From NCBI GenBank assembly GCA_944362965.1, contig CALVTR010000002.1, positions 80,145 through 144,144 of the forward strand: a stretch of 64,000 nucleotides of DNA, written 5' to 3'. Every line of letters starts with the position of its first letter. Position 1 is the first letter of the stretch. Below, piece after piece: positions 12,022 to 62,665 of this stretch. The translations under genes and the position numbers were made by a program. The stretch comes from an uncultured Clostridia bacterium (GTDB taxonomy: Bacteria; Bacillota; Clostridia; Christensenellales; UBA1242). The notes below the pieces were generated by a model. The model had not been told where the DNA came from and ran no database searches. It saw nothing but the letters and a program-made list of their open reading frames with translations.

Positions 12022-12395
12022 CAAAGCTGCCGCAAGGTAGAATGTCTTGCGGCGTCGGAGCGTATATAATCGGAGCAGAGCGACACCGCATATTGCCCGT
12101 GTGAGCCTCAGCGAACGTGGGCAGCGGAGCGTGCGAACGGAGTGAGCGTGCGAAGCCAAAAGCGGAGCGGAACGAAGTGAAAGCGGAGCGGAAAGCGGAA
12201 TTGCAGCTGCGTCGTAAGTGCAGCTGCGATGGAGCGCGAAAGCGAGCATAAGCGGTGCGTCAAGGGGTGCACCGCTTGTGCGAGCGGAGCAAGTTGCGAG
12301 CGTGGCGAAGCCGTGCGAGCAAAAAGCGAACGCAGTGAGCAAGCGATGCGAGCGTATGAGCCTTGCGAATGAGCGAGCGGAGCGGAGCGAGTTGA
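12022..12395. repeat. GC-rich structured repeat, copy A (longest)
   Basis: A GC-rich island (clearly above 60% by eye) in an AT-rich genome. Positions 12081..12320 align with 17074..17279. It contains the 13-bp hairpin gcataagcggtgc-N9-gcaccgcttgtgc and many GAGCG/GCGAGC words. Confidence 0.7.
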
Positions 12396-12664: not shown

Positions 12665-13513
12665 ATGTTTTTTGAATACTTAAAAAATTTTGACGATTAT
12701 AGTCTTTTTTCTACAACACATATTTTGCATATTGTTTTTTGCATTGCGATAGCCATTATTCTTGCAATAGTTTTACGAAAGCTAAATAGCAAGCATCAGC
12801 GAATTGTTGGCATTGTTATTGCAAGTGTTGTTATTACGCTGCATATTGCAACTCAAGTTTGGCGTGCTGCTTCTTTTGCAGACGGAAGGTCAAAAGGGAT
12901 AATTGAAAGTGTGGCTTATCTTGTGATGCCTAACGAAATTCTACCTTTTCAACTTTGCAGTATGTTATGTTTCTTAATTCCTATCTGTGTTATGTTAAAT
13001 AAACAATGGATGTATAATGCTCTCGCGCCAATTTGCGTTATCGCAGGCTTTTTATATTTCTTCTTCCCAGATGGAATTATAAATCGCTATCCACCTTTCA
13101 GTTTTAGAGTTCTTGAGAGTATGCTTGTTCATACAGCAATTCTTTTCTATGGCATCTATCTATTCACAAGCAAAAAAGTTGTATTTAAACTTAAAAATAT
13201 GCGTGAAGTTTTCGCGTCCGCTGCTGTTCTCTTTGGCATCGCCATAATTATGAATGTTATAATAACAAACTTTGACCCTAACGTTGACTTCTTCTATATG
13301 ATGAAAGGTTTTGGGCTTGGACTTCACCCTGCAGTTAACGCAATTATAATTGCTCTTGTTGGGACTGCCCTATTCTTTGCGGTATATGGTATATGTCAGC
13401 TATGTTATAAATTGTCCGCAATTTATCAAGAAAAGAAACAACAAAGACTTGCAGTTGCTATTGAAGGAAATATAACACAAGAAGAAAATAACGAAAAAGA
13501 TAACAAAAAATAA
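12665..13513 (+). CDS. Polytopic integral membrane protein (YwaF/TIGR02206-like, tentative)
   Basis: About 7 predicted TM helices. The ATG at 12665, preceded by GGAGA, is preferred over the track start. Confidence 0.55.
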   Translation: MFFEYLKNFDDYSLFSTTHILHIVFCIAIAIILAIVLRKLNSKHQRIVGIVIASVVITLHIATQVWRAASFADGRSKGIIESVAYLVMPNEILPFQLCSMLCFLIPICVMLNKQWMYNALAPICVIAGFLYFFFPDGIINRYPPFSFRVLESMLVHTAILFYGIYLFTSKKVVFKLKNMREVFASAAVLFGIAIIMNVIITNFDPNVDFFYMMKGFGLGLHPAVNAIIIALVGTALFFAVYGICQLCYKLSAIYQEKKQQRLAVAIEGNITQEENNEKDNKK

Positions 13514-13540
13514 AAAGCGTAATTTTTTTACGCTTTTTAT
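13513..13540 (+). terminator. Rho-independent terminator
   Basis: aaaagcgtaa-ttttt-ttacgctttt plus a T run right after the stop. Confidence 0.7.
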
Positions 13541-13605
13541 TTTTCATCCACTTTCTTAGCTTATACATTCAACAAATTTTGCTTTTTAGATAAACTCGGG
13601 GCTTT

Positions 13606-13700
13606 ATAGGCAGCGGAAATTATTTGCTTTAAGCAAACAAAATTGCGATAGCAATTTTAAAATTTTAACTTAGTTAAAATTTTATTTTCGCTGCCCCTAT
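13606..13700. repeat. Three-hairpin junction element E5
   Basis: Bulged closing stem ataggcagcggaaat/attttcgctgcccctat. Hairpins are tttgctt-t-aagcaaa, aaaattgc-gata-gcaatttt and aaaattttaact-t-agttaaaatttt. Confidence 0.55.
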
Positions 13701-16683: not shown

Positions 16684-16925
16684 AAAAAAAACACGCCGGC
16701 CTAAAGTTTTAGGACGAGCGTGCTCGTGGTACCACCTAAATTTATGCGAGGACAACCAAAAACATAGATTTTTTTCTGTCTTTGCACCTTATTTTCTCGT
16801 TCGTGAGAATAACGCAAAACTTGAAATAAATGTAATTCGCTTTATAGTGTCATTCAGGCTTTCACCAACCGCCCTATCTCTTTATGCCCATTTATAAAAC
16901 TACTGATTTTACTCCGCCATTTTGT
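16684..16925 (-). promoter_or_regulatory. T-box riboswitch leader (probable Tyr specifier)
   Basis: The minus strand shows AAAGAGATAGG, GGTGAAAG, the T-box AAATTTAGGTGGTACCACGAGC and a terminator ending in a T run. A UAC triplet (GAAUUACAUU) lies in the specifier region, and tyrS is downstream. Confidence 0.8.
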
Positions 16926-17064
16926 TTTTGCTAAAAAATTACTGCAATAAGCATATAATTTATTTTATTATAAAAGTTGAAAATCAAATTGTCAACACTT
17001 ATTTGAAATTTTATAAAAATATTTAAAAAAGGTCAATGTATTGCAATTTAATTTTATAAATTGG

Positions 17065-17330
17065 AACGAAAGTGACACCGCATGTTGCCCGTGTGAGCTA
17101 TAGCGAACGTGGGCACGCGGAGCGTGCGAGCAAAGCGAGCGTGCGGAGCGAAGAGCGGAATTGCAGCGTCACGTGAAGTGGTGCTGCGATGGAGCATAAA
17201 AGCGAGCATAAGCGGTGCGTCAGGGGTGCACCGCTTATGCGAGCGGAGCAAGTTGCGAGCGTGGCGAAGCCGTGCGAGCGGAGCGGAAAGTAAGAGAATG
17301 AACCTAGCGAGTGTGTGAGCGGATAAGAAG
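17065..17330. repeat. GC-rich structured repeat, copy B
   Basis: Aligns with copy A. It shares gacaccgcatgttgcccgtgtgagc and the perfect 13-bp hairpin gcataagcggtgc-gtcaggggt-gcaccgcttatgc, followed by gagcggagcaagttgcgagcgtggcgaagccgtgcgagc. Confidence 0.7.
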
Positions 17331-17486: not shown

Positions 17487-17663
17487 ACGAAGAGATGAGC
17501 GAGCATAAGCGGTGCGTCAGGGGTGCACCGCTTATGCGAGCGGAGCAAGCTGCGAGCGTGATCGTAGGTCGTGCGAGCGGAGCGAAGCAGGAAAACAAAA
17601 TTAAAAAACAAAATAAAAAATGTGTAAATAAAGCTTTTACGCCGTGCGAGAAGGAAAGCACGT
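17487..17663. repeat. GC-rich structured repeat, copy C (partial)
   Basis: Repeats the hairpin core gagcgagcataagcggtgcgtcaggggtgcaccgcttatgcgagcggagcaag. A further fragment, acgccgtgcgag, lies at about 17640. Confidence 0.6.
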
Positions 17664-20520: not shown

Positions 20521-20630
20521 ACTGTTTTGATAATTTCTTGTGTTTTAATAATTTTTTTAAAACAATATAAGAAAAACTTGAACACTTAAATAAAGTTTAT
20601 TCAGGGAGACGCGGTTTGCGTGAGACAATT

Positions 20631-20722
20631 ACGGCAAGAAAAAGCGGCACATTTTTTGTGCCGCCGCAAAAACTCTTGTTTTTGCCTGCTTTTAACAAGT
20701 TGAAAGCAGATTTTCTTGCCGT
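20631..20722. repeat. Three-hairpin junction element E6
   Basis: Closing stem acggcaagaaaa/ttttcttgccgt. Hairpins are gcggcac-atttttt-gtgccgc, gcaaaaac-tctt-gtttttgc and ctgcttt-taacaagttg-aaagcag. Confidence 0.7.
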
Positions 20723-20764: not shown

Positions 20765-22261
20765 TTATTCTATTTCATCGTCTCTATCAAAATAGCTAGC
20801 ACCTTCCACTGGTTTAAGCTTATTGATATCAAAGGCAGCAAAACCTTTTGTTACAAGTTTTTCAAAGTCGCCTTCATAGAAAATGCAAACATCTTCAAAC
20901 TGAGTTTTAAGTTCATTTATCGCATTATCAATGAAGGCTTGTCTGTCTTCTTCTGTTGAGAATTTATTATTGTCTATTGAATAATCATAGCCATTTTTAA
21001 AATATGAACACAAAAATCTTATCAAATGCAAGAAATAGTAGTCACTTTGTTCAATCATATACCTTCTATAACGTGCACTAAGTTCTGCGTCATAGAAATA
21101 TTTTTCTGACTTCATAGGGTCATTACGTTTTACTGAGAACAATGAAAAAGCGTAATTTCTTGGATAAAAGCCTCCCCTGATGTTATGTGAATTAGGATTT
21201 AACATGATGGTTGCATCACCATTAACTCTGTAAACTACCCTATGCTTCAGTTGTTTCTCACCGTTTTTTGTTTCTCTTTCAAATCTTATTTTTCCATTGC
21301 TTTCTACACTTGCAATATGTTGAGATAAGATATCAAGCATTTCCTTTTCGCTAATTTTTTCTACTGGGAACATATCAAGCATATTTGACAAAGTGTTTTT
21401 GAACTTCTGTAGTTTATCATAAGAAATACTGCTTTCAAATTCAGTTGCTTCAGTATGTTCTTCATCTTCATAAACTATTTCATCTTGCAATCTGCGGCGA
21501 ATCTCGCCAAGAGTATCATTGTCAACTTCACCAATATAATTTTTTATTCTTTGTGGAGAAATCACTTTCAAAACTGGAACGAGATAGCTTGTGAGATCGG
21601 TAAATTTGCCAACTTCGTAGCTGTCTTTTTTAAGTTTGTCAGTAAGCGGAACACAATAATATACGCATTTATTTTTACTTCTACCAATTATCACGACCGG
21701 TCTTTCGCCGCCAAACTCTTCTCCAACAACAGGATTTAGATCTGCAAAGTATACGCCCTTTATCTTAATCTCTCTATCTTTTCTGTAATAGCGATTTTCA
21801 ATCATTTTGAACTCAACATGGTTGCCTATTTGCACATGTCCCATTTTAGCTAGCAGTCTGCACCTTGCGTCAGCTTTTACCATATTTTCCCATTCTTCAA
21901 TACGAGTGCTATATAGCGACTTTATTAAGGCTTCCTGTATTTGTTTCCCTGCTTCTTCGGCAAGCTTTTCAAATTCTTCCTTTAAAGTGCCAATTTCGGT
22001 ATACTTGCTTGCTATATAGTCAACAAGCGTCCTTTTAAGTTTTGTCTCTAGGGTTTTATTTCCGCATTGAATGTAAATCTCATTATTATATAACTTTAAA
22101 AGCACATTCTCTTTGCTGTGCGTGTCTTGAACTGTAAGTATAATTTGGCTGCTATCTGGCTTTAATTTTTCAAAAGACAACACGTCATACCCTTTCTTAA
22201 ATACCTTAAGAAAAGGAACCTTTAGTTCTTCTAAATCTAGACATATTTTAAAATCACTCAT
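20765..22261 (-). CDS. Large multidomain protein with an embedded MazF/PemK-like domain
   Basis: 498 aa. Residues about 165-275 read KGVYFADLNPVVGEEFGGERPVVIIGRSKN...VISPQRIKNYIGEVDNDTLGEIRRRL, parallel to the canonical MazF at 8942..9289. The flanking domains of roughly 165 aa (N-terminal) and 220 aa (C-terminal) are unassigned. Confidence 0.7.
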   Translation of the reverse strand: MSDFKICLDLEELKVPFLKVFKKGYDVLSFEKLKPDSSQIILTVQDTHSKENVLLKLYNNEIYIQCGNKTLETKLKRTLVDYIASKYTEIGTLKEEFEKLAEEAGKQIQEALIKSLYSTRIEEWENMVKADARCRLLAKMGHVQIGNHVEFKMIENRYYRKDREIKIKGVYFADLNPVVGEEFGGERPVVIIGRSKNKCVYYCVPLTDKLKKDSYEVGKFTDLTSYLVPVLKVISPQRIKNYIGEVDNDTLGEIRRRLQDEIVYEDEEHTEATEFESSISYDKLQKFKNTLSNMLDMFPVEKISEKEMLDILSQHIASVESNGKIRFERETKNGEKQLKHRVVYRVNGDATIMLNPNSHNIRGGFYPRNYAFSLFSVKRNDPMKSEKYFYDAELSARYRRYMIEQSDYYFLHLIRFLCSYFKNGYDYSIDNNKFSTEEDRQAFIDNAINELKTQFEDVCIFYEGDFEKLVTKGFAAFDINKLKPVEGASYFDRDDEIE

Positions 22262-25264: not shown

Positions 25265-25552
25265 CTCGTCTCCTATTATAACACTGATTGCAATGATTTT
25301 CAATACCCTATTTAAAAAAAATTGATAAAATGTTAAATTTTTTGCAATTTTCTTTAAAAAAACGAGTAAAAATCACTTTTTTTCGACTTTTTAGCATAAA
25401 AAACATAAATTTTGGAAATTTTTATCTTTGCCATTATGTATTTATACGTTCACTTATATTTTACACTATTTTTAAAATAAAATATACTTTTTTCAAAAGA
25501 AAAATATAAAAAACTTGAATTAAATGTCGGAAGTGGGTTCTGTGGATTAATA

Positions 25553-25692
25553 GGGGTTTGCGTGAGAGAAGAGCCACGCGGAAACGCACGCCTGACAAGG
25601 CGTGCAAGGGCTTTTTGAGAGAAAAGCCCTAAATTTTGAAAACTCGTTTTTCAAAATTTGTTTCCGCGTGCCCTTTTTCTCACGCACACCCC
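25553..25692. repeat. Three-hairpin junction element E7 (double closing stem)
   Basis: Nested stems ggggtttgcgtgaga/tctcacgcacacccc and ccacgcggaaac/gtttccgcgtg. Hairpins are gcacgcc-tgacaa-ggcgtgc, agggctttt-tgagag-aaaagccct and aaattttgaaaa-ctcg-tttttcaaaattt. Confidence 0.7.
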
Positions 25693-25790
25693 TTTTCTTA
25701 TATATAAAAGCCACTGTTAAACAAATCAAAAATTTGCCAAACGCTCTCGTCAACTAATTTAATAAAAAAGAGCAAGTTTACCCCTGCCCT

Positions 25791-27887
25791 TTATTTTATA
25801 AATCTTACAAATTCAAAGTCTATCTTTCGAGTGTAGATATTTGATGCTGTCAATTTGACAACTATCTTGTCGCCAACTGAGAAAGAAAGCTTTTGTCCTT
25901 TAAGTTTAAGTTGTTTTTCAAATAGCAAGAAACCGCTATCTGGCAAATCTTCCACCTTTATCATACCTTCAACGGTGTTAGGGAGTTCAACAAAGATACC
26001 AAAATTGGTGACAGAAGAAACAACTCCTTCAAACTCTTGACCAACTTTATCTCGCATAAGATATGCTTTCCATAGGTCGTCAACTTCACGTTCACACTTG
26101 TCGGCATTCTTTTCAGTTAGGCTTGATTGCTCGCCTGCTTCAAAAGTAAAGCTTTCAAGTTCTGCCTTTCTTTGCTCGCCTAATGTCTTTTTATGCAACA
26201 CTTCTTTGATGATTCTATGAATTGTAAGGTCTGGATAACGGCGAATTGGCGAAGTGAAATGGCAGTAATACTTGAGTGCCAAGCCAAAGTGACCTAGACA
26301 CTGATTGGTATATCTTGCCTTTTGCATAGAGCGAAGAATGACTTTGTTGACAGTTTCGGTGTAAGACTGACCGCTACAACGTTTGATTAACTCTTGATAA
26401 TACTCTGGCGTGATATTGTCAGGCAATGCTGGAACTTTTATTCCCAGTCCCTTTAAATATTCAATAACATTTTCAGCTTTTTCCTTTCTTGGACTTTCAT
26501 GCACGCGGTATAGGAAAGGTATCTTGTTATCACAATATTCTTTTGCCACCGTTTGATTTGCAAGCACCATAAAGTCTTCAATAAGGCGGTGTGCATCATT
26601 GCGCTCGCGTTTTGTGAAGTCAACAGCCATGCCATTTTCGTCAAATACAAATTGCACTTCTGGGATTTCAAAATCAAGAGAGCCTGCTGCTGCCTTCTTT
26701 GCCTGGATTTTCTTAGATATTTCATGCATAAGTTTAAGCTCTTCTTTGACGCTTTCTGTTTTTTCGTCGGCTAGCTGGTCACAGAGAACTTTATAGACAT
26801 TTGTATAGTTAAGTCTTGCCTTGCTTTTTATAACGCTCTCACAAATTTGATGAGAGATGACATTTGCATTTTCATCAAGCGTCATAATGCAAGATAACGT
26901 CAATCTTTCAACGCCTTCATTGAGTGAGCATATGCCATTTGAGAGCTCTTTAGGAAGCATTGGAAGCACAGATGTTGGAAAGTAAACACTTGTGCCACGA
27001 TTGTAGGCTTCTTCGTCTAGCAAGCTGTCATACTTAACATACTCGCCAACATCGGCAATGTGGACACCTAAGATATAGCCATTTTCTGTTTTTTCTATTG
27101 ACACGGCGTCATCTAAGTCTTTTGCGTCTTCGCCGTCTATTGTGAAAGTCACCTTATCAGTAAGGTCAAGTCTGCCCTTCTTCTGCTCTTCGGTCACCTT
27201 TTGTGGCAACGCATTTGCTTCTTCTAGCACTTCAGAAGAAAAGGTTTCATATAGCTGATGGTCGCGAATTATTGCAAGTTCACAAGCCTTAACGTCATCA
27301 CTTTTGCCAAGAACTTCTGTTACCACGCCTAAAAATTTGCCGTTATGACGGGTTAAGTTTATAACAACCCTGTCATCTTCCCTTGCACGAAGTCCACCCT
27401 TAATTAGCAAGATTTTAAAAGGTATACGAGTGTTGTCTGGTTCAACAAAAAGATTGCCGCCAACCTTTTCCACAACTCCCGCAACACTTTTGACAGGCTT
27501 AAAGATGCTGACAACTTGCCCGTCACTTTCGTTGCCATTTTTTGATAAAATCTTAACAATTACGCGGTCTCCATCGACGGCACCATTTTGCATATTTGCT
27601 GGAATAAAGACATCTTCTTCACTAGAATTGTCTATTTGACAAAAGCCAAAACCTTTTGCATTGCCAACGAAAGTTCCGCGCATATAGTCGCCTGATGGCA
27701 CAACCACATACTTATCTTTTTGCTCTTTATATATAAGCCCATCTTTTTCAAGTTTTTTAAAATCACTCTTTACTTCTTCATAGGCAATACCATATGTATT
27801 TTCTATAAAATAAAAAAGATTGTCTAGCCTTTTGAAAGCCAAACCATCTTTTTTTAACAGCTCTAGTATTATATTTTTAGCCTGCAC
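25791..27887 (-). CDS. rnr: Ribonuclease R
   Basis: 698 aa with cold-shock-like N-terminal domains, an RNB core (..DGEDAKDLDDAVS.., HFGLALKYYCHFTSPIRRYPD) and a C-terminal S1 domain (GVVSSVTNFGIFVEL). Confidence 0.9.
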   Translation of the reverse strand: MQAKNIILELLKKDGLAFKRLDNLFYFIENTYGIAYEEVKSDFKKLEKDGLIYKEQKDKYVVVPSGDYMRGTFVGNAKGFGFCQIDNSSEEDVFIPANMQNGAVDGDRVIVKILSKNGNESDGQVVSIFKPVKSVAGVVEKVGGNLFVEPDNTRIPFKILLIKGGLRAREDDRVVINLTRHNGKFLGVVTEVLGKSDDVKACELAIIRDHQLYETFSSEVLEEANALPQKVTEEQKKGRLDLTDKVTFTIDGEDAKDLDDAVSIEKTENGYILGVHIADVGEYVKYDSLLDEEAYNRGTSVYFPTSVLPMLPKELSNGICSLNEGVERLTLSCIMTLDENANVISHQICESVIKSKARLNYTNVYKVLCDQLADEKTESVKEELKLMHEISKKIQAKKAAAGSLDFEIPEVQFVFDENGMAVDFTKRERNDAHRLIEDFMVLANQTVAKEYCDNKIPFLYRVHESPRKEKAENVIEYLKGLGIKVPALPDNITPEYYQELIKRCSGQSYTETVNKVILRSMQKARYTNQCLGHFGLALKYYCHFTSPIRRYPDLTIHRIIKEVLHKKTLGEQRKAELESFTFEAGEQSSLTEKNADKCEREVDDLWKAYLMRDKVGQEFEGVVSSVTNFGIFVELPNTVEGMIKVEDLPDSGFLLFEKQLKLKGQKLSFSVGDKIVVKLTASNIYTRKIDFEFVRFIK

Positions 27888-29632: not shown

Positions 29633-29684
29633 ATTTTTCTCCCCTTTTTATGTATTTTTTGTTTCAATTTTGGTTATTTTAGTA

Positions 29685-29779
29685 GGCGGGCGAAAGTTGC
29701 TCGCTCGCAGAGCGAGCCCAAGAAAGCAAAAGCTTTCTTGAAAAATTTTTAGGCTTAAAAATTTTTACTTTCGCCTGCC
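29685..29779. repeat. Three-hairpin junction element E8
   Basis: Closing stem ggcgggcgaaag/ctttcgcctgcc. Hairpins are gctcgctc-gca-gagcgagc, agaaagc-aaaa-gctttct and aaaaattttta-ggc-ttaaaaattttt. Confidence 0.7.
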
Positions 29780-29827
29780 GCCCCTGAATCCAGATAAAGT
29801 TTAAAAAAACTATCAATCTTTAAAATT

Positions 29828-30226
29828 TTATAGTTTGTCATACTCTTCATCTGAGACAGGTTCAAGCCACTCATTGCTTCCACCTTCTGCAGGAATTTCT
29901 ATAGCAACATGAGTAAACCAACTGTCTCTTGCTGCACCATGCCAGTGCTTAACTTCTGGTGCAATGTATACAACATCGCCCGGTTTTAGTTCTTGTGCTT
30001 TTTTGCCATATTCTTGATACCAACCTTTTCCATCGGTGCATAGCAAAATTTGTCCGCCCTTATGGTGAATATGCCAGTTATTTCTGCATCCCGGTTCAAA
30101 GGTTACATTTGCAATGCTAACTCCCTTGCTATTCAATGGCTTTAAATAGCTGTTGCCAATAAAATACTTTGCAAACGCGGTGTTAGGTTGTCCTAGCCCA
30201 AATAATGAATCACTTTCTTTTTTCAT
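29828..30226 (-). CDS. Cupin-domain protein
   Basis: The sequence NVTFEPGCRNNWHIHHKGGQILLCTDGKGW...HWHGA carries cupin motifs. The ATG at 30226 is the likely start. Confidence 0.75.
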   Translation of the reverse strand: MKKESDSLFGLGQPNTAFAKYFIGNSYLKPLNSKGVSIANVTFEPGCRNNWHIHHKGGQILLCTDGKGWYQEYGKKAQELKPGDVVYIAPEVKHWHGAARDSWFTHVAIEIPAEGGSNEWLEPVSDEEYDKL

Positions 30227-31961: not shown

Positions 31962-32540
31962 TTATTTTATCTTACCTTTGTTATGCTCTCTTTCTCGTTG
32001 TCCCCTATAATTTAAAAATCTATTGTTCCACAAAGTTAAGGGCTCGTTTGTAAGTGCTTTTGAATAAATGACAATGTTTCCGATATCAGTTGTAACATCA
32101 TCGTTATTTTTATAAAGCTCCTTTGTCATGCCCATCTTTTCATACAATTTGCAAGCACAAGCATTGTCTATATCATCTGTGTATAGTCTTATAACCTTAA
32201 AGCCGTTTTCTTTTGCCCAATTTTCAAACATCCTAAAGATTTCGGTGCCATAACCGTGATTACGCTTATCTTCTCTAACGCCATACCAGCCAAGCCAACA
32301 TTCGTCAAGGTCGCCTTCAATATAATGTCCCCATAGACCTATGATTTCACCTTCACCATCTTTTACTATAAAATATTCATATTGATATTTTCTTGGCAAG
32401 TCACTATTCAAATTTTGCTCTATAGCTTCAAAATAATTTTGCTCCGCATCTTCTCGTGGAAAAATTGCATGCTGAAGATGGAGAGCCTGCTTGATGTTAT
32501 CTTGTGTTATAAGCTCGCTAATCAAATTTAATTTTTTCAT
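31962..32540 (-). CDS. GNAT-family N-acetyltransferase
   Basis: GVREDKRNHGYGTEIFRMFENWAKENGFKVIRLYT matches acetyl-CoA binding motif A. Confidence 0.75.
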   Translation of the reverse strand: MKKLNLISELITQDNIKQALHLQHAIFPREDAEQNYFEAIEQNLNSDLPRKYQYEYFIVKDGEGEIIGLWGHYIEGDLDECWLGWYGVREDKRNHGYGTEIFRMFENWAKENGFKVIRLYTDDIDNACACKLYEKMGMTKELYKNNDDVTTDIGNIVIYSKALTNEPLTLWNNRFLNYRGQREREHNKGKIK

Positions 32541-33058
32541 TCATTCCCTTTTATTTTTCCATCAAACGTTACATTATTCGCCCTTGCCATATTGATAAAT
32601 TCTTGAATGTTCTTATTCATATTTGAAAGCGAAAAAATCTTTTTATCACCTATGTATACCGCATAGTTTATTATTCCATAATTGAGCTCTCTAACTTTTA
32701 TATAGCTTATATCTTTAACATTAAATCGCATTGTCTTTTTAAATGACGGTGTGTAGATTATCATTGTGTCAAAAACAACGACCTTAAACCTTAATATAAC
32801 AATAAAAAGTATACAAAACAAGGCAAGACAGCCTAGAATAATATAATAATAAAATTCAACATTTGCAAAAATACCGATTATAGCGAGTATACAAGTAAGT
32901 GCAAGAAAAACTATAAAAGTGATTCTAAAGCCCTTATATTCTATAACAAAATGCAGTTTGTATTCGTCTTTTAGCTCAATCTTTTTCTGTAGTAAATTAT
33001 ATATTAAAGGCACAACAAATGCAACAATAATACATGTTATAATAGTCGCAATATTCAT
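32537..33058 (-). CDS. Membrane protein (unknown)
   Basis: 173 aa with three N-terminal TM helices plus a soluble C-terminal domain. Its start overlaps the stop of the upstream ORF. Confidence 0.5.
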   Translation of the reverse strand: MNIATIITCIIVAFVVPLIYNLLQKKIELKDEYKLHFVIEYKGFRITFIVFLALTCILAIIGIFANVEFYYYIILGCLALFCILFIVILRFKVVVFDTMIIYTPSFKKTMRFNVKDISYIKVRELNYGIINYAVYIGDKKIFSLSNMNKNIQEFINMARANNVTFDGKIKGNE

Positions 33059-33059
33059 A

Positions 33060-33524
33060 TCATTCCTTTTTATTTAATATTTCCATTATCTTACCACTAA
33101 AAAGTGAAACACGCTTTGCACTTGTTGTGCCATAATTTATATGCTTGTCATCTTTTGTAAATTCTCCAACGTAGTATGTTTCATTTCCGTCAAAGCTTTC
33201 ACCTTTTTCGTATAAAAAAAGCCTAAATTCACTATCCTTGCTTATTGCGATAGCTATTGCATAACAATCTGTTACGTTTTTTACAAATGTATCTTCAAAT
33301 TCAACGAACAATACTATACTTTGTGAATGTTCAAAGTCCGCAGTTATGTTTTTTACAGGAACTTTTTCATATTCTTCACTAAATCTTTCACATATCATTC
33401 TAGGAGCATCTTCACTAATGAAATATTCAAGATTTTTTGGGTTTGGAGCTATTGTATTTATAAAAAAATCTTTATTAGCATAAATTACGTTTAATAAATT
33501 TGAAAAATATATGTATTTATTCAT
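33060..33524 (-). CDS. Hypothetical cytoplasmic protein
   Basis: 154-aa ORF tightly packed with the downstream ORFs. No motif was recognised. Confidence 0.45.
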   Translation of the reverse strand: MNKYIYFSNLLNVIYANKDFFINTIAPNPKNLEYFISEDAPRMICERFSEEYEKVPVKNITADFEHSQSIVLFVEFEDTFVKNVTDCYAIAIAISKDSEFRLFLYEKGESFDGNETYYVGEFTKDDKHINYGTTSAKRVSLFSGKIMEILNKKE

Positions 33525-33625
33525 AAATTATCCCTTTTATATAAAATTATTATATCATAAATTTCCCACTTTTAAAAATATATTTTGCGAATACATATAA
33601 ATACACTAAATATAATTGGTGCGAA

Positions 33626-33704
33626 AGCGGCGAAAACAAATGTTAAGGCGCAGATTTTCGCTTTTAAAAAAGCGAAAACAAGCAACAATGCAGTTTTCGC
33701 CGCT
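33626..33704. repeat. Reduced junction-type element abutting the tRNA-Pro 3' end
   Basis: 12-bp stem agcggcgaaaac/gttttcgccgct, whose right arm ends at the tRNA CCA end. The inner hairpin is ttttcgctttt-aa-aaaagcgaaaa. Confidence 0.5.
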
Positions 33705-33779
33705 GGTCGAGATGGCGGGATTCGAACCCACGACCTCACGGTCCCGAACCGTGCGCGCTACCAACTGCGCTACATCTCG
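33704..33779 (-). tRNA. trnP: tRNA-Pro (anticodon CGG)
   Basis: The minus strand reads CGAGATGTAGCGCAGTTGGTAGCGCGCACGGTTCGGGACCGTGAGGTCGTGGGTTCGAATCCCGCCATCTCGACCA, with anticodon loop TTCGGGA. Confidence 0.88.
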
Positions 33780-33991
33780 CTATTTTTAGCAAAAATAAAT
33801 AATAATTAAATAAATTAAAGATTGTTGAATTGTTTTTTGTTTTTAATAATTACCGCAAGTCAGCAAAGCTTAATCCTTTGTTGCATTAACAAAGTTTGAT
33901 GCTTACCCAAATATATGATATTTCAATTTAGTGTGTTTTAAAACAAAACTAAAAATGTTTAATTTTTAACATCAGATAGTTTATTTTTCAT

Positions 33992-34426
33992 TTAAATATT
34001 TGAAATAAGCATAATCTTCACCATAATTTTGTTTCTTATAAAATTTTCTTGACTGTTATTTTCATAATCACATGTAAGCATGATAAGATCAGCATTTATC
34101 TTTTTTGCAAAGTCTTCAACAAAAGTCATTATTTTTGAGCCTATTCCCCTGTTGCGATACTCTGGGTGAACCCTTAAATTCCATATCATCAAGATTGGCT
34201 TTTGCTTTTCAACAATATCATGATTTACAACAAGAGAGCAAAAGCCGAGTAATTTTTCACCCTCAACTGCTGATACAAATTTATAATCTTCATTTTTTAT
34301 AAGTTCTTCATATTTACGATACATTCCATCGACATCAGTTTCAAGCCCATTATCACCATTATAGTATTGCCTATAAAGCCATGGAAGTTGCGATAAATCT
34401 TTCTTTATTGTAAAACGTATTTCCAT
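33992..34426 (-). CDS. GNAT-family N-acetyltransferase
   Basis: LRVHPEYRNRGIGSKIMTFVEDFAKKINADLIMLTC matches motif A. Confidence 0.75.
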   Translation of the reverse strand: MEIRFTIKKDLSQLPWLYRQYYNGDNGLETDVDGMYRKYEELIKNEDYKFVSAVEGEKLLGFCSLVVNHDIVEKQKPILMIWNLRVHPEYRNRGIGSKIMTFVEDFAKKINADLIMLTCDYENNSQENFIRNKIMVKIMLISNI

Positions 34427-34452
34427 ATTTCTCCTAAAAAAATAACTTTGAT

Positions 34453-34824
34453 TTAGTTTTCTCTTTCAAACACATAATATGTTGCAGGTTTTCCGCCATA
34501 AATTACTAAAATAAAATTTTCATCATCCTTTACTTCAATAAACATATATTCGCAATCATCTATATTTTTTATTGTGTATCTGTAAGTTAAAATAGGGTCG
34601 TCACCGCCATAATGTATTGCAAGATAACCCTTTGTCCACCCTTCAAAAATCCAATAACCCTTGCCATCCGGCAAAAAATATATTTCATCAAATCCGTCTT
34701 CATTGATTGTTTTCTTTATTTGATAAGGATTAAACTCTGCAATACTATCTATTGTGTCAGCATATACCCACTTTCCAATAGCCTTTTCATCATTAACAAA
34801 TTCCATCCCATTTGCAATTTTCAT
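34453..34824 (-). CDS. Hypothetical protein
   Basis: The ORF has a GGAGA RBS before the internal ATG at 34824 (MKIANGMEFVNDEK..). No motif was recognised. Confidence 0.45.
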   Translation of the reverse strand: MKIANGMEFVNDEKAIGKWVYADTIDSIAEFNPYQIKKTINEDGFDEIYFLPDGKGYWIFEGWTKGYLAIHYGGDDPILTYRYTIKNIDDCEYMFIEVKDDENFILVIYGGKPATYYVFEREN

Positions 34825-35029
34825 AAAAGTTCTCCGAATTAAGCTATGTGATATCAAAACATTAGCGTTTGATGCGAAAAGACGAAAACAAACAACAATC
34901 TTCATCTTTTCCTTATGAAAGCCGCACTAAATTCACACCGTGAATTTACGCTTGGTGCGAAATTGAAAATTTTGAGTGATATCGCGAGATGTGCCAATGG
35001 CACAATCCGCCTGAACGTAAAAATTTTCA

Positions 35030-35103
35030 TGGAGCAGGTGACGGGAATCGGACCCGCGAATTACGCTTGGGAAGCGCACATTTTACCACTAAATTACACC
35101 TGC
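35030..35103 (-). tRNA. trnG: tRNA-Gly (anticodon CCC)
   Basis: The minus strand reads GCAGGTGTAATTTAGTGGTAAAATGTGCGCTTCCCAAGCGTAATTCGCGGGTCCGATTCCCGTCACCTGCTCCA, with anticodon loop TTCCCAA. Confidence 0.85.
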
Positions 35104-35198: not shown

Positions 35199-35293
35199 GT
35201 GGCGGAAGAGCCGCAAGCATTTAGCTTGCAATAAAAAGCGAATGCTTTTTATTTAATTTTCAAAAAGAATTTGAAAATTTGCTCTTCCGCCAC
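35199..35293. repeat. Three-hairpin junction element E9 (cleanest example)
   Basis: Perfect 13-bp closing stem gtggcggaagagc/gctcttccgccac. Hairpins are gcaagc-attta-gcttgc, aaaaagc-gaat-gcttttt and ttttcaaa-aagaa-tttgaaaa. Confidence 0.75.
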
Positions 35294-35418: not shown

Positions 35419-37179
35419 CTATTCAACTGTTACACTTTTTGCAAGATTTCTTGGCTTATCTGGATCATAGCCCTTAGTGACGGCAGTAAAATAGGCAAGT
35501 TTTTGTAAACTTAAAATAATTTGAAGTGGCATAAAATCTTTTTCTGGCTTTTTAACCTTTATAATATAATCAAACGCTTTTTCTGTTTCGCTGTCAGTGT
35601 TTAAAGTTGTGAAAAGAACAAGTTTTCCGCCGCGTGCTTTAATCTCATAAGCATTATTGAGCGTTTTGTTAAATAAATTTTCATCGGTGGCAATTACAAT
35701 GACAGGAACGGATTTATCAATCAGAGCTATCACGCCATGTTTAAGCTCTCCACTTGGCTGCGCGGTAGAGAAAATGTATGTTATCTCCTTTAATTTTAGT
35801 GAAGCTTCCTGCGCTGTTATATAATCTCTGCCTCGACCTATAAAAAACACCTTATCGTAACCTGCAAGTTTTTCAGCAAGAGTTTTGAGAATGTTATCAT
35901 CACCAAAATCTATCTGCCGTTTAAAGTTGTAAAGTGGCAAGATATAATCGTTGCCTTTAAGATAACTTGTTAAGATATACAAAACAATACATTGGGCAAA
36001 ATACGCTTTTGTTGAAGCAACCGCTTTTTCCTGCCCTGCACAAATAGGAAAGTTTATGCTTGCTTTTCTAGCGATGCTGCTATACTCGGTGTTGGTTACG
36101 GCAACAATAATTCCGCCCCTACTTTTGCAATATTCAAGTGCGGCTAGTGTGTCCGCTGTTTCTCCGCTTTGAGATATAAAAATGCAAAGACTTTTTTCAT
36201 CAATATTAAGATTTTTATACATTATTTCGCTGGCAATTTCACAAAAGACATCTATATTAAAGGCTTCACGCATATAGCTTCCACCAATAAGTCCTGCATG
36301 ATACGCCGTGCCACAACCGATAAGGTAAATCCTGTCAAATTCATAGTTTTTAAGTTCTTTTAGTTTTTCTTTTATGTCGTAACTACGATAGACTTCCATA
36401 ATCTTTTCAAGGGCAAGTCTTGATTGATAAATTTCTTTTAGCATAAAATGTTGATAACCTGATTTTTCTTCATTTATAAAGCTGAAATCAAGTTTTTGTG
36501 GCTGTTTTTTCACAATTTTATCATTTTTATCATAAATTATCACTTCTTTTTGAGAAAATTTGCCATATTCGCCGTCTTCTAATGTTATATAGCCATCAGC
36601 AAAACCAACAAAACACGAAGGGTCGCTTGCAATAAGAGCACACTCGCTGCCAAGAGCTATATAAAGCGGACTTTTATTTTTTGCAAAATAAATATAATCG
36701 CTGTTCTTTGAAATTATGGCAAGAGCGTAGGAGCCAACAAGTTTTTTCTTAACCCTTCTTAAATTGTTTATATCAAGTTTGCAATCAAAAAGTTTTGCAA
36801 TCACTTCGCTGTCGGTTTGCCCATAAAAATACTTACCTTTTTTGATTAAATCATCTTTCAGTTCTTCATAATTTTCAATAATTCCATTATGAACAAGAGC
36901 CGTGCTTCCATTTGATGAAAAATGTGGATGACAATTCTCTATTGAAATTTGCCCATGCGTTGCCCACCTTGTGTGAGCAATGCCTATGCCAAATTCTTCA
37001 TTTTCTTTTATCGTTGACTTTAATTTTTCAACAACGCCTGTTGCCTTATATGTTGTGAAATCATTATTTCTTTTTATAGTCATGCCTGAAGAATCATAGC
37101 CGCGATATTCAAGCCGCTCAAGCCCTAGATACAAATTACTTTCAACATTACTTCCAATGTAGCCAATTATTCCGCACAT
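35419..37179 (-). CDS. glmS: Glutamine--fructose-6-phosphate aminotransferase
   Basis: MCGIIGY N-terminal nucleophile, two SIS domains and a C-terminal ..LAKSVTVE. Confidence 0.95.
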   Translation of the reverse strand: MCGIIGYIGSNVESNLYLGLERLEYRGYDSSGMTIKRNNDFTTYKATGVVEKLKSTIKENEEFGIGIAHTRWATHGQISIENCHPHFSSNGSTALVHNGIIENYEELKDDLIKKGKYFYGQTDSEVIAKLFDCKLDINNLRRVKKKLVGSYALAIISKNSDYIYFAKNKSPLYIALGSECALIASDPSCFVGFADGYITLEDGEYGKFSQKEVIIYDKNDKIVKKQPQKLDFSFINEEKSGYQHFMLKEIYQSRLALEKIMEVYRSYDIKEKLKELKNYEFDRIYLIGCGTAYHAGLIGGSYMREAFNIDVFCEIASEIMYKNLNIDEKSLCIFISQSGETADTLAALEYCKSRGGIIVAVTNTEYSSIARKASINFPICAGQEKAVASTKAYFAQCIVLYILTSYLKGNDYILPLYNFKRQIDFGDDNILKTLAEKLAGYDKVFFIGRGRDYITAQEASLKLKEITYIFSTAQPSGELKHGVIALIDKSVPVIVIATDENLFNKTLNNAYEIKARGGKLVLFTTLNTDSETEKAFDYIIKVKKPEKDFMPLQIILSLQKLAYFTAVTKGYDPDKPRNLAKSVTVE

Positions 37180-44159: not shown

Positions 44160-44316
44160 CTTCCGCCTCCGCTTTAATGATGCTTCCTTTTATTTTTATT
44201 CATTTATAAATTTTTATGTTTATTGTGTAAAAAATTTATAAATATATTTTTGTAAATTTATTATAACAAAAAATAAAGCAAAAGCAAACCTTTTATAGAT
44301 TTTTTTATTTTTAATT

Positions 44317-44431
44317 TTTGCGGAAGAGAAAGCCGCGAGATTGCATGAGCGGCTTTGAAACGCAAGGGCTTTCTGCGAAAGAACTTGCGTTTGCTTCACA
44401 AACTTTGTTTTGTGAAGCGCTCTTCCGCAAA
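44317..44431. repeat. Three-hairpin junction element E10
   Basis: Closing stem tttgcggaagag/ctcttccgcaaa. Hairpins are aaagccgc-N12-gcggcttt, aaacgcaag-N17-cttgcgttt and cttcacaaaac-ttt-gttttgtgaag. Confidence 0.7.
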
Positions 44432-44570
44432 ATCGAATAAAAACAAAAATCACCTTTGAATTATAAAAAAATACTATATTTTTCTTAAATTTTCTAAAAA
44501 AACAAGAAAACACCTTATTTTTACTAAAAAAATGCAAATATTTTGTCAAAATACTTGCATTTTTATTAAA

Positions 44571-52540: not shown

Positions 52541-53215
52541 ATGACAAACGACAATATTACAATGACTATGTTTGAGCTTTATTCAAAGTATCGTGATGGA
52601 GAATTAAGTTTGGAAAGAGCTTCATATTTTATTAAAAAACTTGATGACATTCGTCATGACAAGAAGATTTCAGATTTATTTGATAATAAACAAGATTTAT
52701 TTGATATTGTCAATATTCATTGCAATGAAATTGACATACTTTTTGATGCAAGTGACAATTATAAAACTACAGCTCTTGAAGAAGAAAACAAAGGAAAAGT
52801 TATATGTGACATCTTCTTTAAAAAAGAAGGAAAGAATCATCTTTTCTTAGGCAGATTTGTAAACGTTGACGCAGACACTGCCCGTGCGATTAAAAACTTT
52901 TTGAGAAATGGTATATATGCACCACATATTTTTAGCTATGATTATGACAATCAAAGATTTGATAGAGAGCGCTTCTCTAAGTTATCAAATAAAGGGCTTA
53001 TGCAATACAAAGATTACATTGATTCAAATATCGACTGCCTTACTGAAGTGACATGCATATCTGAAAGTAGTGACGCCCTACGTGATGACATCAAAAAAGG
53101 TATAGTTGAGGCTTGGAGAAGAAATATGATACAAAGTCATCTTGATTATCGACTTACCGCCTATGAAAGGGCTTGTGAAATTGAAAATGGTGATGGTGAA
53201 GACGAGAGAGAATAA
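52541..53215 (+). CDS. Paralog 1 of an uncharacterised tandem family
   Basis: 224 aa. It shares the N-terminal pattern (..ELYSKYRDGELS..YFIKKLD), a central FFKKEGKN..LG block and an acidic tail (ENGDGEDERE) with the next three ORFs. Confidence 0.65.
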   Translation: MTNDNITMTMFELYSKYRDGELSLERASYFIKKLDDIRHDKKISDLFDNKQDLFDIVNIHCNEIDILFDASDNYKTTALEEENKGKVICDIFFKKEGKNHLFLGRFVNVDADTARAIKNFLRNGIYAPHIFSYDYDNQRFDRERFSKLSNKGLMQYKDYIDSNIDCLTEVTCISESSDALRDDIKKGIVEAWRRNMIQSHLDYRLTAYERACEIENGDGEDERE

Positions 53216-54466
53216 CAAAGGAGAAATTTATGGAAATAGACAATATCAAATTTGCAATGCTTGGAATTTATGATAAGTATAAGCAAGGAAAAATCAGTCA
53301 AGAAGTGGCAGAATATTTTGTATCTCATCTTGATAGCGTGCAAAGAAAAAATGGCGTGCAAAATTTATCACAAGTCATCTATGATTATGAACATGCTGAA
53401 ATTGGTATAAGTTTTGCAACAGTCGGCAAGCCATACATCTTTGAAGAAGAAAATAGCAAACTTGTTCGTGAGCTATTCTTTATGGATCAAGGCGAAAAAT
53501 ACCCTATCTATCTTGGTGATATAATTAAGCTTAATAAAAATGTTGAAAATAGACTTGAATACTTTTTAGAGCAAGGTGTTTATTACCCAAGTGTTCAAGC
53601 TTTTCATTGGGGTGAAACCGACTTGGAAAATGACAAGCGAAGATTTAGACTATTGCCAATGGAAGAGCTAAAGAAATATAGAAAATATATAAACGACCTT
53701 ATTAATAGTCGTAGCGTTATGAAATTTGGTAAAGACTGCCCTTACCATATTGAGCAAAAGAGATTTGAAGCTGAAATGTTTACAAAATGGCAAGTATATA
53801 TGTTAAACAGACCAATGCTTTATAGAATTGATGCTTACAATCTTATTGATAGAAGCGAGGCTGAAAGAAATAAAATTGACGAAAACGGAGATGGCGAGAG
53901 AGAATAACAAAGGAGAAATTTATGGAAATAGACAATATCAAATTTGCAATGCTTGGAATTTATGATAAGTATAAGCAAGGAAAAATCAGTCAAGAAGTGG
54001 CAGAATATTTTGTATCTCATCTTGATAGCGTGCAAAGAAAAAATGGCGTGCAAAATTTATCACAAGTCATCTATGATTATGAACATGCTGAAATTGGTAT
54101 AAGTTTTGCAACAGTCGGCAAGCCATACATCTTTGAAGAAGAAAATAGCAAACTTGTTCGTGAGCTATTCTTTATGGATCAAGGCGAAAAATACCCTATC
54201 TATCTTGGTGATATAATTAAGCTTAATAAAAATGTTGAAAATAGACTTGAATACTTTTTAGAGCAAGGTGTTTATTACCCAAGTGTTCAAGCTTTTCATT
54301 GGGGTGAAACCGACTTGGAAAATGACAAGCGAAGATTTAGACTATTGCCAATGGAAGAGCTAAAGAAATATAGAAAATATATAAACGACCTTATTAATAG
54401 TCGTAGCGTTATGAAATTTGGTAAAGACTGCCCTTACCATATTGAGCAAAAGAGATTTGAAGCTGA
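53203..54466 (+). repeat. Direct tandem duplication, 692-bp period
   Basis: Positions 53203..53774 appear identical by eye to 53895..54466 (572 bp, including RBS AAAGGAGAAATTT and 181 codons). The copies diverge from 53775/54467 onward, with a short re-matching patch. Confidence 0.8.
53230..53907 (+). CDS. Paralog 2 of the tandem family
   Basis: 225 aa. The first 185 aa are identical to paralog 3. The tail reads ..FTKWQVYMLNRPMLYRIDAYNLIDRSEAERNKIDENGDGERE. Confidence 0.65.
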   Translation: MEIDNIKFAMLGIYDKYKQGKISQEVAEYFVSHLDSVQRKNGVQNLSQVIYDYEHAEIGISFATVGKPYIFEEENSKLVRELFFMDQGEKYPIYLGDIIKLNKNVENRLEYFLEQGVYYPSVQAFHWGETDLENDKRRFRLLPMEELKKYRKYINDLINSRSVMKFGKDCPYHIEQKRFEAEMFTKWQVYMLNRPMLYRIDAYNLIDRSEAERNKIDENGDGERE

Positions 54467-54599
54467 GATGGTTGAAGAATGGCAAAAATATATGATAAAA
54501 AATCAAATGGCTTATAGAATTGATGCTTACAATCTTATTGGCAGAAACGAGGCTGAAAGCGAAGAAACGAGCGAAATTGGTGATGACGAGCGAGAATAA
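53922..54599 (+). CDS. Paralog 3 of the tandem family
   Basis: 225 aa. The tail reads ..VEEWQKYMIKNQMAYRIDAYNLIGRNEAESEETSEIGDDERE. Confidence 0.65.
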   Translation: MEIDNIKFAMLGIYDKYKQGKISQEVAEYFVSHLDSVQRKNGVQNLSQVIYDYEHAEIGISFATVGKPYIFEEENSKLVRELFFMDQGEKYPIYLGDIIKLNKNVENRLEYFLEQGVYYPSVQAFHWGETDLENDKRRFRLLPMEELKKYRKYINDLINSRSVMKFGKDCPYHIEQKRFEAEMVEEWQKYMIKNQMAYRIDAYNLIGRNEAESEETSEIGDDERE

Positions 54600-59774: not shown

Positions 59775-59850
59775 TTTAGACAAAGCGAGCCGTGCGGGCG
59801 CGTCAGCGGTGCGACCGCGTGGCGAGCGGAGCGAAGCTTCTTTGCGTTTT
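59775..59850. repeat. GC-rich repeat fragment (copy D) inside the ileS leader
   Basis: gcgagccgtgcgggcgcgtcagcggtgcgaccgcgtggcgagcggagcgaagc shares GCGAGCGGAGC words and a gcggt-gcg-accgc hairpin with copies A-C. Confidence 0.45.
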
Positions 59851-60021: not shown

Positions 60022-60275
60022 ATCTAACAAAAAGCCCATTAAGTTACAAGAACCTAATGGGCCAAACCACTTGTAATCTTATAGCCGAGCAAACACTCGC
60101 CCCTTCTATAACGGGAAGTCCCGACAATTTTTACACAAGAATTTATAAAAAATATCCTTTTTCAAAATTGCAACTCCGAAAGTGATAATTTTTAAGCCTT
60201 TCTATTGCCTTCCACCACAAACGGCAACTCTCTGGATGAACCTAACTTAAAAACCTTGTCTTTCATCAACGCTTT
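60022..60275 (-). promoter_or_regulatory. T-box riboswitch leader (probable Ile specifier AUC)
   Basis: The minus strand shows GTTGATGAAAGACAAG, CCAGAGAGTTGCC..GGTGGAAGGCAA, the specifier-region triplet AUC (AAAUUAUCACUU), a degenerate T-box AAGTGGTTTGGCCC and the terminator gcccattaggtt-N6-aacttaatgggc plus TTTTTG. Confidence 0.65.
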
Positions 60276-60374
60276 TATTATTACTAAACATTATTTATTT
60301 TAGTCACTTAAAACACATTTGTCAATAAATTTTATCTATTTTTAGGGAAAAGAGATGGTATCATCTCTAATTAT

Positions 60375-62499: not shown

Positions 62500-62665
62500 A
62501 ATAAAAAACTCCTTTTTTATTTTTCTTTTTAGTTTGTTGAAAGATGCCTGTTTTATGCAAAATGTGACTTATTTTGCATTTTTCAGCCCTAGTTTAGCAC
62601 TTTTAATCTCTTTGTCTTAAGTGTGACGGCACTATGGCGTCACAAAATTTAAAATTTTTTATAAC

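Follow-up and report, generated by a model that had tools for sequence, protein, structure and literature searches.

A lineage-specific family of intergenic four-way-junction elements in uncultured gut Clostridia

The window analyzed here is a 64-kb stretch of contig CALVTR010000002.1 from an uncultured Clostridia bacterium, and all positions given below follow its own numbering. It has a GC content of 34%, belongs to a low-GC Firmicute and carries approximately 71% of its coding sequence on the - strand, encoding among others a DnaD-domain protein, TyrS, RNase R, GlmS and IleS, together with the large signal recognition particle (SRP) RNA, the transfer-messenger RNA (tmRNA) and three tRNAs (Rfam scan), as well as two T-box leaders that score below the gathering threshold. 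Cumulative GC skew declines steadily across the window, and a decomposition of the skew at third positions weakly points to the - strand as the likely leading strand. Scattered through the intergenic spacers, at a rate of about one per 5 kb, are 13 copies of a structured element, 12 of them complete and one reduced (Table 1). They belong to a lineage-specific family of nested DNA palindromes. A closing inverted repeat surrounds three perfect palindromes, which are independent of one another and have a fixed polarity of order; many copies are vertically inherited and have their helices preserved by host-level purifying selection. The family is real and selected, and it is apparently hitherto undescribed.

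In its minimum-free-energy structure each of the 12 complete copies has a closing stem that encloses three simple hairpins side by side and no others, while the reduced one (33626-33704) is a closing stem with a single central hairpin; the copies that a preliminary description of this sequence had picked out therefore all fold as depicted there. With DNA parameters on the + strand the z-scores lie between -5.5 and -17.4, and with RNA parameters on the - strand between -6.3 and -14.7. The fold is the same under both, and for each copy none of 200 dinucleotide shuffles folds as well under either. Elements measure 86-140 nt (typically ~95), with closing arms of 8-34 nt, hairpin stems of 6-16 bp and loops mainly of 3-4 nt, and the junction is tightly packed, its linkers being 0-1 nt long in 106 of 116 cases. 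The 5' closing arm has a GC fraction of 0.56 (window GC 34%) and a purine fraction of 0.68. A purine-rich left arm, as noted earlier, is of no use as a marker of orientation, since it holds for either strand in any inverted repeat; orientation is readable from the order of the hairpins.

An RNALfold-style scan for local multiloops proved noisy and missed copies, and purpose-built detectors were used instead. The strict detector, which tolerates no imperfection in a stem, yields 7 junctions with three hairpins for the window and 0 for 20 shuffles, and a relaxed detector run alongside it yields 10 versus 0 in 8 shuffles; junctions with two or four hairpins were returned by neither. The pervasive and non-random four-way-junction architecture claimed at the outset stands, and the checks suggested along with it (comparison of folds with shuffles, scanning with a covariance model, covariation, presence or absence in relatives) each had a positive outcome. 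Relatives were taken from species-representative genomes recovered through a search with RNase R, which supplied 23 loci of 22 kb each (designated below by L-numbers), all from metagenome-assembled genomes (MAGs) of uncultured gut Clostridia (human, mouse, ruminant and other) with RNase R identities of 68-95%. A 302-aa protein of the window used as a homologue query returned distant relatives only. The negative control consisted of 713 kb of unrelated bacteria from a metagenome search with GlmS, which gave 79 such bacteria at ~40% identity and, besides them, one identical contig. The strict detector finds 13 junctions in 370 kb of related MAG loci and 0 in the 713 kb of unrelated bacteria. An energy-density detector was not comparable on the GC-rich control loci, and the strict detector and a covariance model therefore served for the controls. 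An assembly artefact is excluded, as copies recur in MAGs of many independent studies.

The copies had at first been held to share their fold and not their sequence, and it is here that our results depart from the preliminary description. MAFFT fails to align paralogous copies structurally, so a covariance model from one orthologue set was used to align the remainder. This model was trained solely on the rnr-smpB orthologues (window 25570-25675, L001 and L020) and, scanning the window with filters off, it recovers 12 of the 12 complete copies, the 11 that are not training sequences at expectation values (E) from 1e-14 to 1e-5. The reduced copy is matched more weakly (Table 1), and the other matches in the window are a weak one at 811-905 and plain terminators at E > 0.01. 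On 273 kb of window and related MAG loci there are 23 matches at E < 1e-4, three of which are the training sequences, and on the 713 kb of unrelated bacteria there is nothing below E = 0.006. Because a model built from orthologues at a single locus detects the remaining loci with a clear strand preference, the sequences of the copies must be related, although a BLAST search of the window against itself yields just two weak paralogous pairs of 74% and 81% identity. The consensus is degenerate. Read on the - strand for most window copies, it consists of a closing arm (GCGGAAG, GGCGAAAG or GGCAAGAAAA), an AT-only first hairpin of the 'AAATTTT' type (AAATTTTGAAA..TTTCAAAATTT), a middle hairpin that is often GAAAGC-TTTT-GCTTTC, and a GC-rich third hairpin, in an order that is fixed. 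The copy at 2791-2886 is the only clear one in the window with the AT-rich hairpin first on the + strand.

Two marginal matches to the model may be mentioned here. One is the AT-rich stretch at 811-905 (+; 16.9 bits, E = 0.007), which lies between both elements of the 255-1184 spacer and may be a decayed copy; the other is a pair of identical 73-nt AT-rich stretches in unrelated metagenome contigs (L040 6736-6808 and L042 4366-4438; 20.5 bits, E = 0.006). In addition, a motif, CTCACGCAAAC, at 25556-25566 (-) and 25679-25689 (+) builds the outer stem of the 25553 element. The same motif occurs at 20614-20624 (-), immediately outside the 20631 element, and does so likewise in L001, a placement that hints at an extra outer layer or a half-site.

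No Rfam family, with tRNA-like, twister-sister and other four-way-junction RNAs included, matches any part of an element, even at E <= 1, which agrees with the initial impression that they belong to no known RNA family. ARAGORN, run on eight related loci, reports tRNA-Gly, tRNA-Pro and tmRNA genes only, a BLAST search of one copy against plasmid and phage collections gave no match, and no matching description was found in the literature on cloverleaf, four-way-junction or multi-hairpin intergenic repeats. The 'cuckoo RNA' family was considered and is unrelated, being defined by a loop motif; identities as a tRNA-like element, ribozyme, riboswitch, CRISPR or attC site were likewise rejected.

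Four copies, namely those downstream of rnr and of glmS and those at 29685 and 20631, are matched by same-site orthologues among L001, L007, L020 and L022, and these stand out as alignable islands inside spacers that are otherwise unalignable. Positional conservation spans genomes whose RNase R is 80-95% identical. In pairwise alignments of close relatives, stem identity is 89%, while loops together with linkers reach 55% and flanks of 60 nt reach 60%. The four-way junction is also returned by RNAalifold for three sets of orthologues, in which 2, 15 and 4 pairs are compensated. In the alignment derived from the covariance model (23 sequences), 96.6% of the cells are paired compared with 54% when shuffled and 35-54% when slid, absolute figures that lean towards the structure because that alignment is fitted to it; two-sided changes occur at 41 of 41 pairs, and one-sided changes in 2 of 882 cells. 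A count of base-anchored 'double' changes between orthologues was dropped in favor of these comparisons, since such counts are trivial for perfect helices and are inflated by register shifts. Template switching can both create and repair perfect stems (PMC8794818). Stems that evolve more slowly than loops and flanks are, however, unexpected from arm-to-arm correction by template switching alone, and it is on this ground that we infer purifying selection on the pairing.

Occupancy nevertheless changes among relatives, and element density varies strongly, from one per 5 kb in the window to zero at many loci. In fourteen relatives the rnr-smpB spacer contains a plain terminator and no element, and L019 and L014 hold in this spacer an unrelated-looking copy with the opposite hairpin order. 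The reduced copy is an insertion of ~88 nt past the CCA end of tRNA-Pro relative to L001, the site being empty in L001 and L007. Its flanks (TCGACCA ... TCGCACCA) contain a possible imperfect direct repeat of 7-8 bp, and this is the one possible case in a search for target-site duplications over 29 copies, which found no consistent direct repeats. The absence of the 29685 copy from L007 does not provide a clean empty site, because the adjacent gene is missing there too. A copy at L021 17390 was considered as a transposed paralogue and dropped; its right flank is common to others and it is thus not evidence of mobility. L007 is the closest relative (RNase R 95%), and it lacks the 145-aa cupin-like gene with its downstream element (~29658-30220) as well as ~32540-33703 and ~33816-34918, small-gene stretches that flank tRNA-Pro, from which it follows that small genes are gained and lost within the lineage.

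The paralogous leaders at 648-740 and 62791-62921 record a different kind of change. They share the first bases of the closing stem and their flanks align directly, while the three-hairpin cassette is inverted between them: once reverse-complemented, the 62791-62921 interior can be aligned with that of 648-740 at a score of 20, compared with -10 in forward orientation and -9.8 +/- 4.2 for shuffles. The closing inverted repeat evidently lets the cassette flip in place. Beside these leaders, a 60-nt promoter block (789-848 and 62961-63019; TTGACG..TATACT, - strand) is 97% identical between the two loci, and the 5' regions of the two paralogous genes behind it (308-531 and 62413-62642) are only 72% identical; judged from the sequences, this difference suggests gene conversion or a strong constraint on the promoter.

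Table 1. Copies of the four-way-junction element in the window. Orientation is read from hairpin order; model scores are covariance model bits on the strand given in brackets.
Position	Orientation	Form	Setting	Scores	Orthologues and other features
648-740	-	complete	5' leader of - strand gene, downstream of promoter block 791-818	DNA z = -13.2; 29.4 (-) vs 17.1 (+)	
944-1039	ambiguous	complete	between terminator of gene 1185-2690 (-) and next promoter	z = -10.9; 31.9 (-) vs 31.6 (+)	
2791-2886	+	complete	divergent spacer, upstream of both promoters	z = -9.9; 49.7 (+) vs 19.6 (-)	
7817-7905	-	complete	between tRNA gene terminator (7691-7712) and -35 box of gene 7955-8575 (+)	z = -8.5; 26 (-)	
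13606-13700	-	complete	convergent spacer; 36 nt past tyrS stop, 60 nt before bidirectional terminator 13506-13544	55.8 (-) vs 26.3 (+)	
20631-20722	-	complete	convergent spacer, 42 nt past stop of gene 20765-22261	27.7 (-) vs 25.6 (+)	L001 16101, L022 9920
25553-25692	-	complete; 31-bp extended outer stem	between rnr terminator (25767-25792) and smpB promoter		L001 12208, L020 12127; 15 compensated pairs
29685-29779	-	complete	tandem - strand genes; 48 nt past stop, 52 nt before next start	45.4 (-) vs 19.7 (+)	L001 8137
33626-33704	not assigned	reduced	2 nt past 3' end of tRNA-Pro	E = 0.003	
35199-35293	-	complete	125 nt past glmS stop, ~35 nt upstream of tRNA promoter -35 box	z = -11.5	L001 3698, L007 4392
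44317-44431	-	complete, larger	downstream of terminator and of promoter-like site 44460-44488	30.2 (-) vs 16.5 (+)	
62791-62921	+	complete; 31-bp outer stem	5' leader of gene 61591-62499 (-)	40.8 (+) vs 34.2 (-)	
63696-63781	-	complete, compact, near family consensus		z = -10.6; 54.8 (-) vs 32.3 (+)	74% identity to 29683-29774

All 13 copies are intergenic and occupy 11 of the 28 spacers of at least 150 bp, a share of 39% that falls short of the 'most spacers' of the preliminary description. Their occurrence irrespective of gene orientation, by comparison, was correctly seen: the element-bearing spacers comprise 7 tandem, 2 convergent and 1 divergent, and one that separates a tRNA gene from another gene. 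Copies can precede a canonical terminator (13606, and L022 7297) or follow one (25553, 944, 44317, and L022 9920), those at 648 and 62791 lie in 5' leaders, as 44317-44431 probably does too, and 2791 sits between divergent promoters. Their placement with respect to transcription signals is not fixed. Several copies probably escape transcription altogether, among them 7817-7905, which is antisense to both of its neighbours. Each of the tRNA genes at 7607-7677, 33707-33779 and 35033-35103 has an element within 2-140 nt, and in relatives the distance between element and tRNA-Pro is 17 nt (L002, tRNA 5886-5961) or 38 nt (L004, tRNA 5504-5579). Among the window copies of clear orientation, 9 conform to the strand that bears most genes, which is the likely leading one, and 1 does not. 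The five independent convergent spacers all have the AT-rich hairpin in first position when read on that strand, and 7817 behaves alike.

That the elements are not simply terminators, as first proposed, is upheld by the lack of a U-tract in most copies, a U-tract-like run being present in few. Typical 3' arms read CTTCCGC or CTTTCGCC, and a GC-rich hairpin with an immediate U-tract is not what they present. A terminator scan flags hairpins only in 20631, 62791, 944, 2791 and 29685, mostly by virtue of internal A/T runs, and 20631-20722 owes its terminator-like look to TTTTCTTGCC after both end hairpins. Spurious open reading frames (ORFs) do arise from the elements, as had been suspected, for instance at 623-808, 25547-25753, 44220-44549 and 62768-62989, and the elements should be masked during annotation of such genomes.

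The elements had implicitly been treated as RNA, a view from which pair and loop statistics lead away, pointing rather to DNA. G.T makes up 1.3% of 1178 predicted pairs and does so equally on both strands, whereas G.U accounts for 9-20% of pairs on the sense strand of the window SRP RNA, tmRNA, tRNAs and T-boxes and for fewer on the antisense strand. The strand asymmetry in G-U expected of a functional RNA is therefore not seen in the elements; the window terminators are also Watson-Crick only. On the strand with the GC-rich hairpin first (+ in the majority of window copies), 22 of the 87 loops have the G..A form and 3 are GNAB, compared with 4 and 1 on the opposite strand; the loops begin with G in 34% of cases and end with A in 52%. 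GCGNAGC and GCGNNAGC are 'mini-hairpin DNA' motifs of extraordinary stability (PMC13037366), and a C-G closing pair is what d(GNA) loops depend on (PMC3201870). The exact mini-hairpin motifs GCGAAGC and GCGATAGC are present in element loops, and in one orthologue set the same c-g closed loop (c-GNNA-g) is GTTA, GCAA, GATA or GCTA. Most of the G..A tetraloops of the elements differ from RNA GNRA loops.

Compared with known systems, the elements play a genomic role like that of the REP/BIME sequences of Enterobacteria and Pseudomonas, which are likewise abundant extragenic palindromes with GC-rich stems, found mostly at gene 3' ends and in convergent or tandem gaps, at sites that vary between relatives, and for which both DNA roles (binding of gyrase, HU and IHF, topological insulation) and RNA roles (stabiliser, attenuator) have been proposed. 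A REP, however, consists of one imperfect 20-40 nt hairpin whose head is conserved in sequence, alternating in orientation within BIMEs and associated with RAYT transposases, whereas the elements have a closing stem with three perfect hairpins and a degenerate consensus and do not form alternating arrays, and a scan of 20 proteins of the window showed no RAYT. MITEs, Correia, RUP, BOX, ERIC, bcr1 and SMAG repeats share the size class, terminal inverted repeats, intergenic location and stable predicted folds, and every copy does possess a terminal inverted repeat in its closing stem (8-34 bp). MITE copies, on the other hand, are similar within a genome and come with target-site duplications and a cognate insertion sequence (IS) element, while the copies here lack close similarity, are mostly beyond recognition by BLAST, conserve orthologous sites and show compensated evolution in every helix. 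Integron attC sites offer another parallel, as DNA sites set by a single-strand fold, with strand-specific function and an orientation relative to replication that matters. They differ in being one imperfect hairpin with extrahelical bases and R/L boxes, in cassette arrays beside intI; the elements have perfect stems, three hairpins, housekeeping neighbours (tyrS, rnr, smpB, glmS, tRNA genes) and no integrase.

The bidirectional intrinsic terminators of AT-rich Firmicutes are also perfect palindromes, built of an A-tract, GC core and T-tract, and occupy the same spacers in relatives. Parts of the elements resemble them, namely the closing arms (GGCAAGAAAA...TTTTCTTGCC) and the middle hairpin (AATAAAAAGC..GCTTTTTATT), although mostly there is no U-tract after any hairpin and several copies lie downstream of a genuine terminator. 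Termination, moreover, requires neither three hairpins nor a junction. CRISPR arrays are excluded by the dispersed occurrence of one or two copies per spacer, with differing sequence and no regularly spaced identical repeats. Organelle palindromes such as the GC clusters of yeast mitochondria and the double-hairpin elements of Allomyces are short palindromic units of several hairpins, spreading through AT-rich intergenic DNA and recognised through the fold they adopt, yet they belong to eukaryotic organelles and have conserved sequences, two hairpins and no four-way junction. Since the elements fail defining tests of REP, MITE, attC, intrinsic terminator, CRISPR and all Rfam families, we class them with the structured extragenic palindromic repeats, outside the named families.

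Our best explanation, which we put forward tentatively and at a little under even confidence, is that the elements are REP/BIME-like boundary elements kept by the host, acting at the DNA level as four-way junctions at the boundaries of transcription units. The selected object would be the folded DNA, either as a single strand or as an extruded cruciform, in the form of a compact and nearly linker-free junction. The AT-rich hairpin could initiate the local melting that allows the DNA to fold, the G..A mini-loops would stabilise one strand, and the junction might then act as a site for a structure-specific protein or as a supercoil sink, bounding gene 3' ends and the interval between a terminator and the following promoter. 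In transcribed copies the fold could, REP-like, incidentally stop 3' exonucleases or attenuate read-through, and new arrangements would come about through rare insertion and through inversion of the three-hairpin cassette between the closing-stem repeats. In its favour stand the model matches, which reveal one family that is absent from the unrelated control, the slow evolution of the helices, the pair and loop statistics, the mixed and in part probably untranscribed positions of the copies, their orientation along the gene-rich strand and the inversion of the cassette. Several points weigh against this explanation. It rests on statistics, and no partner protein has been identified; the G.U argument loses force because the plain terminators of the window are likewise perfect Watson-Crick palindromes; within the window, the effects of gene orientation and of the direction of replication cannot be separated; the copy at 2791 breaks the rule of loop strand and hairpin order; and the stable loops fall on the likely template for leading-strand synthesis, not on the strand that is usually exposed single-stranded. 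One reason for this, and a speculative one, might be that palindromes are less prone to instability if the more foldable strand does not serve as the lagging-strand template. Also to be counted here is that about 12 independent loci lie 23-145 nt past a stop codon in sense orientation, with the AT-rich hairpin first on the coding strand and the GC-rich hairpin last, followed by a pyrimidine-rich arm as a role at RNA 3' ends predicts, and that relatives without the element in the rnr-smpB spacer carry a simple terminator at the same place. These last points lead to an element that works as RNA in mRNA 3' untranslated regions (UTRs) and 5' leaders, its folded junction serving as a barrier to 3'-to-5' exonucleases and/or as a weak factor-assisted terminator; the GC-rich last hairpin would take the part of a terminator hairpin and the pyrimidine-rich 3' arm that of its U-tract, while the 3' end, once released, would be clamped by the 5' arm. 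We consider this the less probable account, but one to be taken seriously. It gains from the presence of a gene 3' end on at least one side in 10 or 11 of the 13 window copies and of a copy in only 1 of 7 divergent spacers, from the location of 648, 62791 and 44317 downstream of promoters, from the hairpins flagged within 20631 and 62791, each of which is then followed by TTTTCTTG, and from a report of E. coli REP elements as dual terminator-stabilisers (bioRxiv 10.64898/2026.03.23.713779). It is difficult to reconcile, however, with G.U pairs that are almost absent and strand-symmetric, with stable G..A loops on the strand antisense to the upstream gene, with 3' arms of which most hold just 2-4 T and no U-tract, and with several copies (7817, and L019 12169) that are located between a terminator and the promoter following it or run antisense to the genes on either side; nor is a four-way junction necessary for termination.

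The variation in occupancy raises the further prospect of a purely selfish mobile element of the MITE or REPIN kind without host function, whose closing stem would be a terminal inverted repeat and whose stems would be kept by template switching in the form of quasipalindrome correction, and not by selection; template switching is a process that can make and repair perfect stems (PMC8794818). Presence and absence at the same spacer, the strong differences in density between relatives, the ~88-nt insertion with its imperfect direct repeat and the unrelated-looking copy in opposite orientation in the rnr-smpB spacer of L019 and L014 all fit such an origin. We nonetheless think it rather unlikely, for the copies are old and positionally conserved, their stems evolve several-fold more slowly than loops and flanks, a difference not expected from unbiased arm-to-arm correction, the paralogues are too diverged for recent bursts (two BLAST-detectable pairs), the 29 copies show no consistent target-site duplication, and no transposase was found among the window proteins scanned against NCBIfam and Pfam. 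The stable, conserved and covarying fold would suit independent small-RNA genes with their own promoter and terminator, or a riboswitch-like cis-regulator, but this is very improbable: the flanks of orthologues are unconserved, with no conserved promoter or terminator attached, linkers that nearly always measure 0-1 nt and the lack of conserved unpaired bases leave no core resembling a ligand pocket, the loops vary freely, and no Rfam family matches the elements. Returning to the favoured DNA-level boundary element, it can be sharpened into a bolder claim, namely that these are host-selected DNA cloverleaves whose function needs the DNA four-way junction on one preferred, G..A-stabilised strand, oriented to replication and invertible via the closing repeats, and which form a fold-defined class distinct from REP, MITEs, attC and the known RNA families; in this full form we hold the proposal to be doubtful.

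Most of what is known of structured intergenic repeats comes from Proteobacteria and a small number of pathogens, and there is continuing debate over what they do. The present family is informative in this regard by virtue of its complex, nearly linker-free junction, 41 covarying pairs and orthologues across many gut MAGs, and its internal markers (Watson-Crick-only pairs, strand-specific DNA-type loops, polar order and in-place inversion) permit the question of DNA or RNA to be put directly. If the DNA reading is true, the family would offer an uncommon example of a non-B DNA fold under natural selection throughout a bacterial chromosome, and if the cloverleaf proposal is true, a fold-defined, sequence-independent chromosome element (boundary, insulator or protein-landing site). 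Were the RNA reading true instead, it would be a new and abundant class of 3'-UTR modules in uncultured Clostridia.

Several other features of the window deserve mention. A second repeat family, GC- and purine-rich and located on the + strand, occurs at 12063-12390, 17055-17290, 17498-17590 and 59800-59840. Its blocks are made of GCGGAGC, GCGAAGC and GCGAGCG units with several perfect hairpins (e.g. CATAAGCGGTGCGTCAGGGGTGCACCGCTTATG), overlap with spurious ORFs and lack any BLAST match among the related loci. The window contains 32 instances of GCGNAGC, 26 of them on the + strand, and the number expected for the motif is 14.5 +/- 3.5 in total. The glmS ribozyme is present in many Firmicutes, and an Rfam scan found none upstream of glmS (35419-37179) at E <= 1. 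The two T-box leaders, at 16707-16925 (-) and 60044-60278 (-), score 81.7 and 67.8 bits against the Rfam gathering threshold of 93; the first is upstream of an operon ending in tyrS, and the second is upstream of ileS, from whose start it is separated by ~350 nt of unexplained sequence. The gene at 20765-22261 (-) encodes a 498-aa protein of unusual architecture, whose sole Pfam match is a PemK/MazF-like toxin domain at residues 170-259. Finally, three tandem paralogous genes of ~225 aa each lie at 52541-54599, and the 95% DNA identity of the second and third over 713 nt points to a recent tandem duplication.

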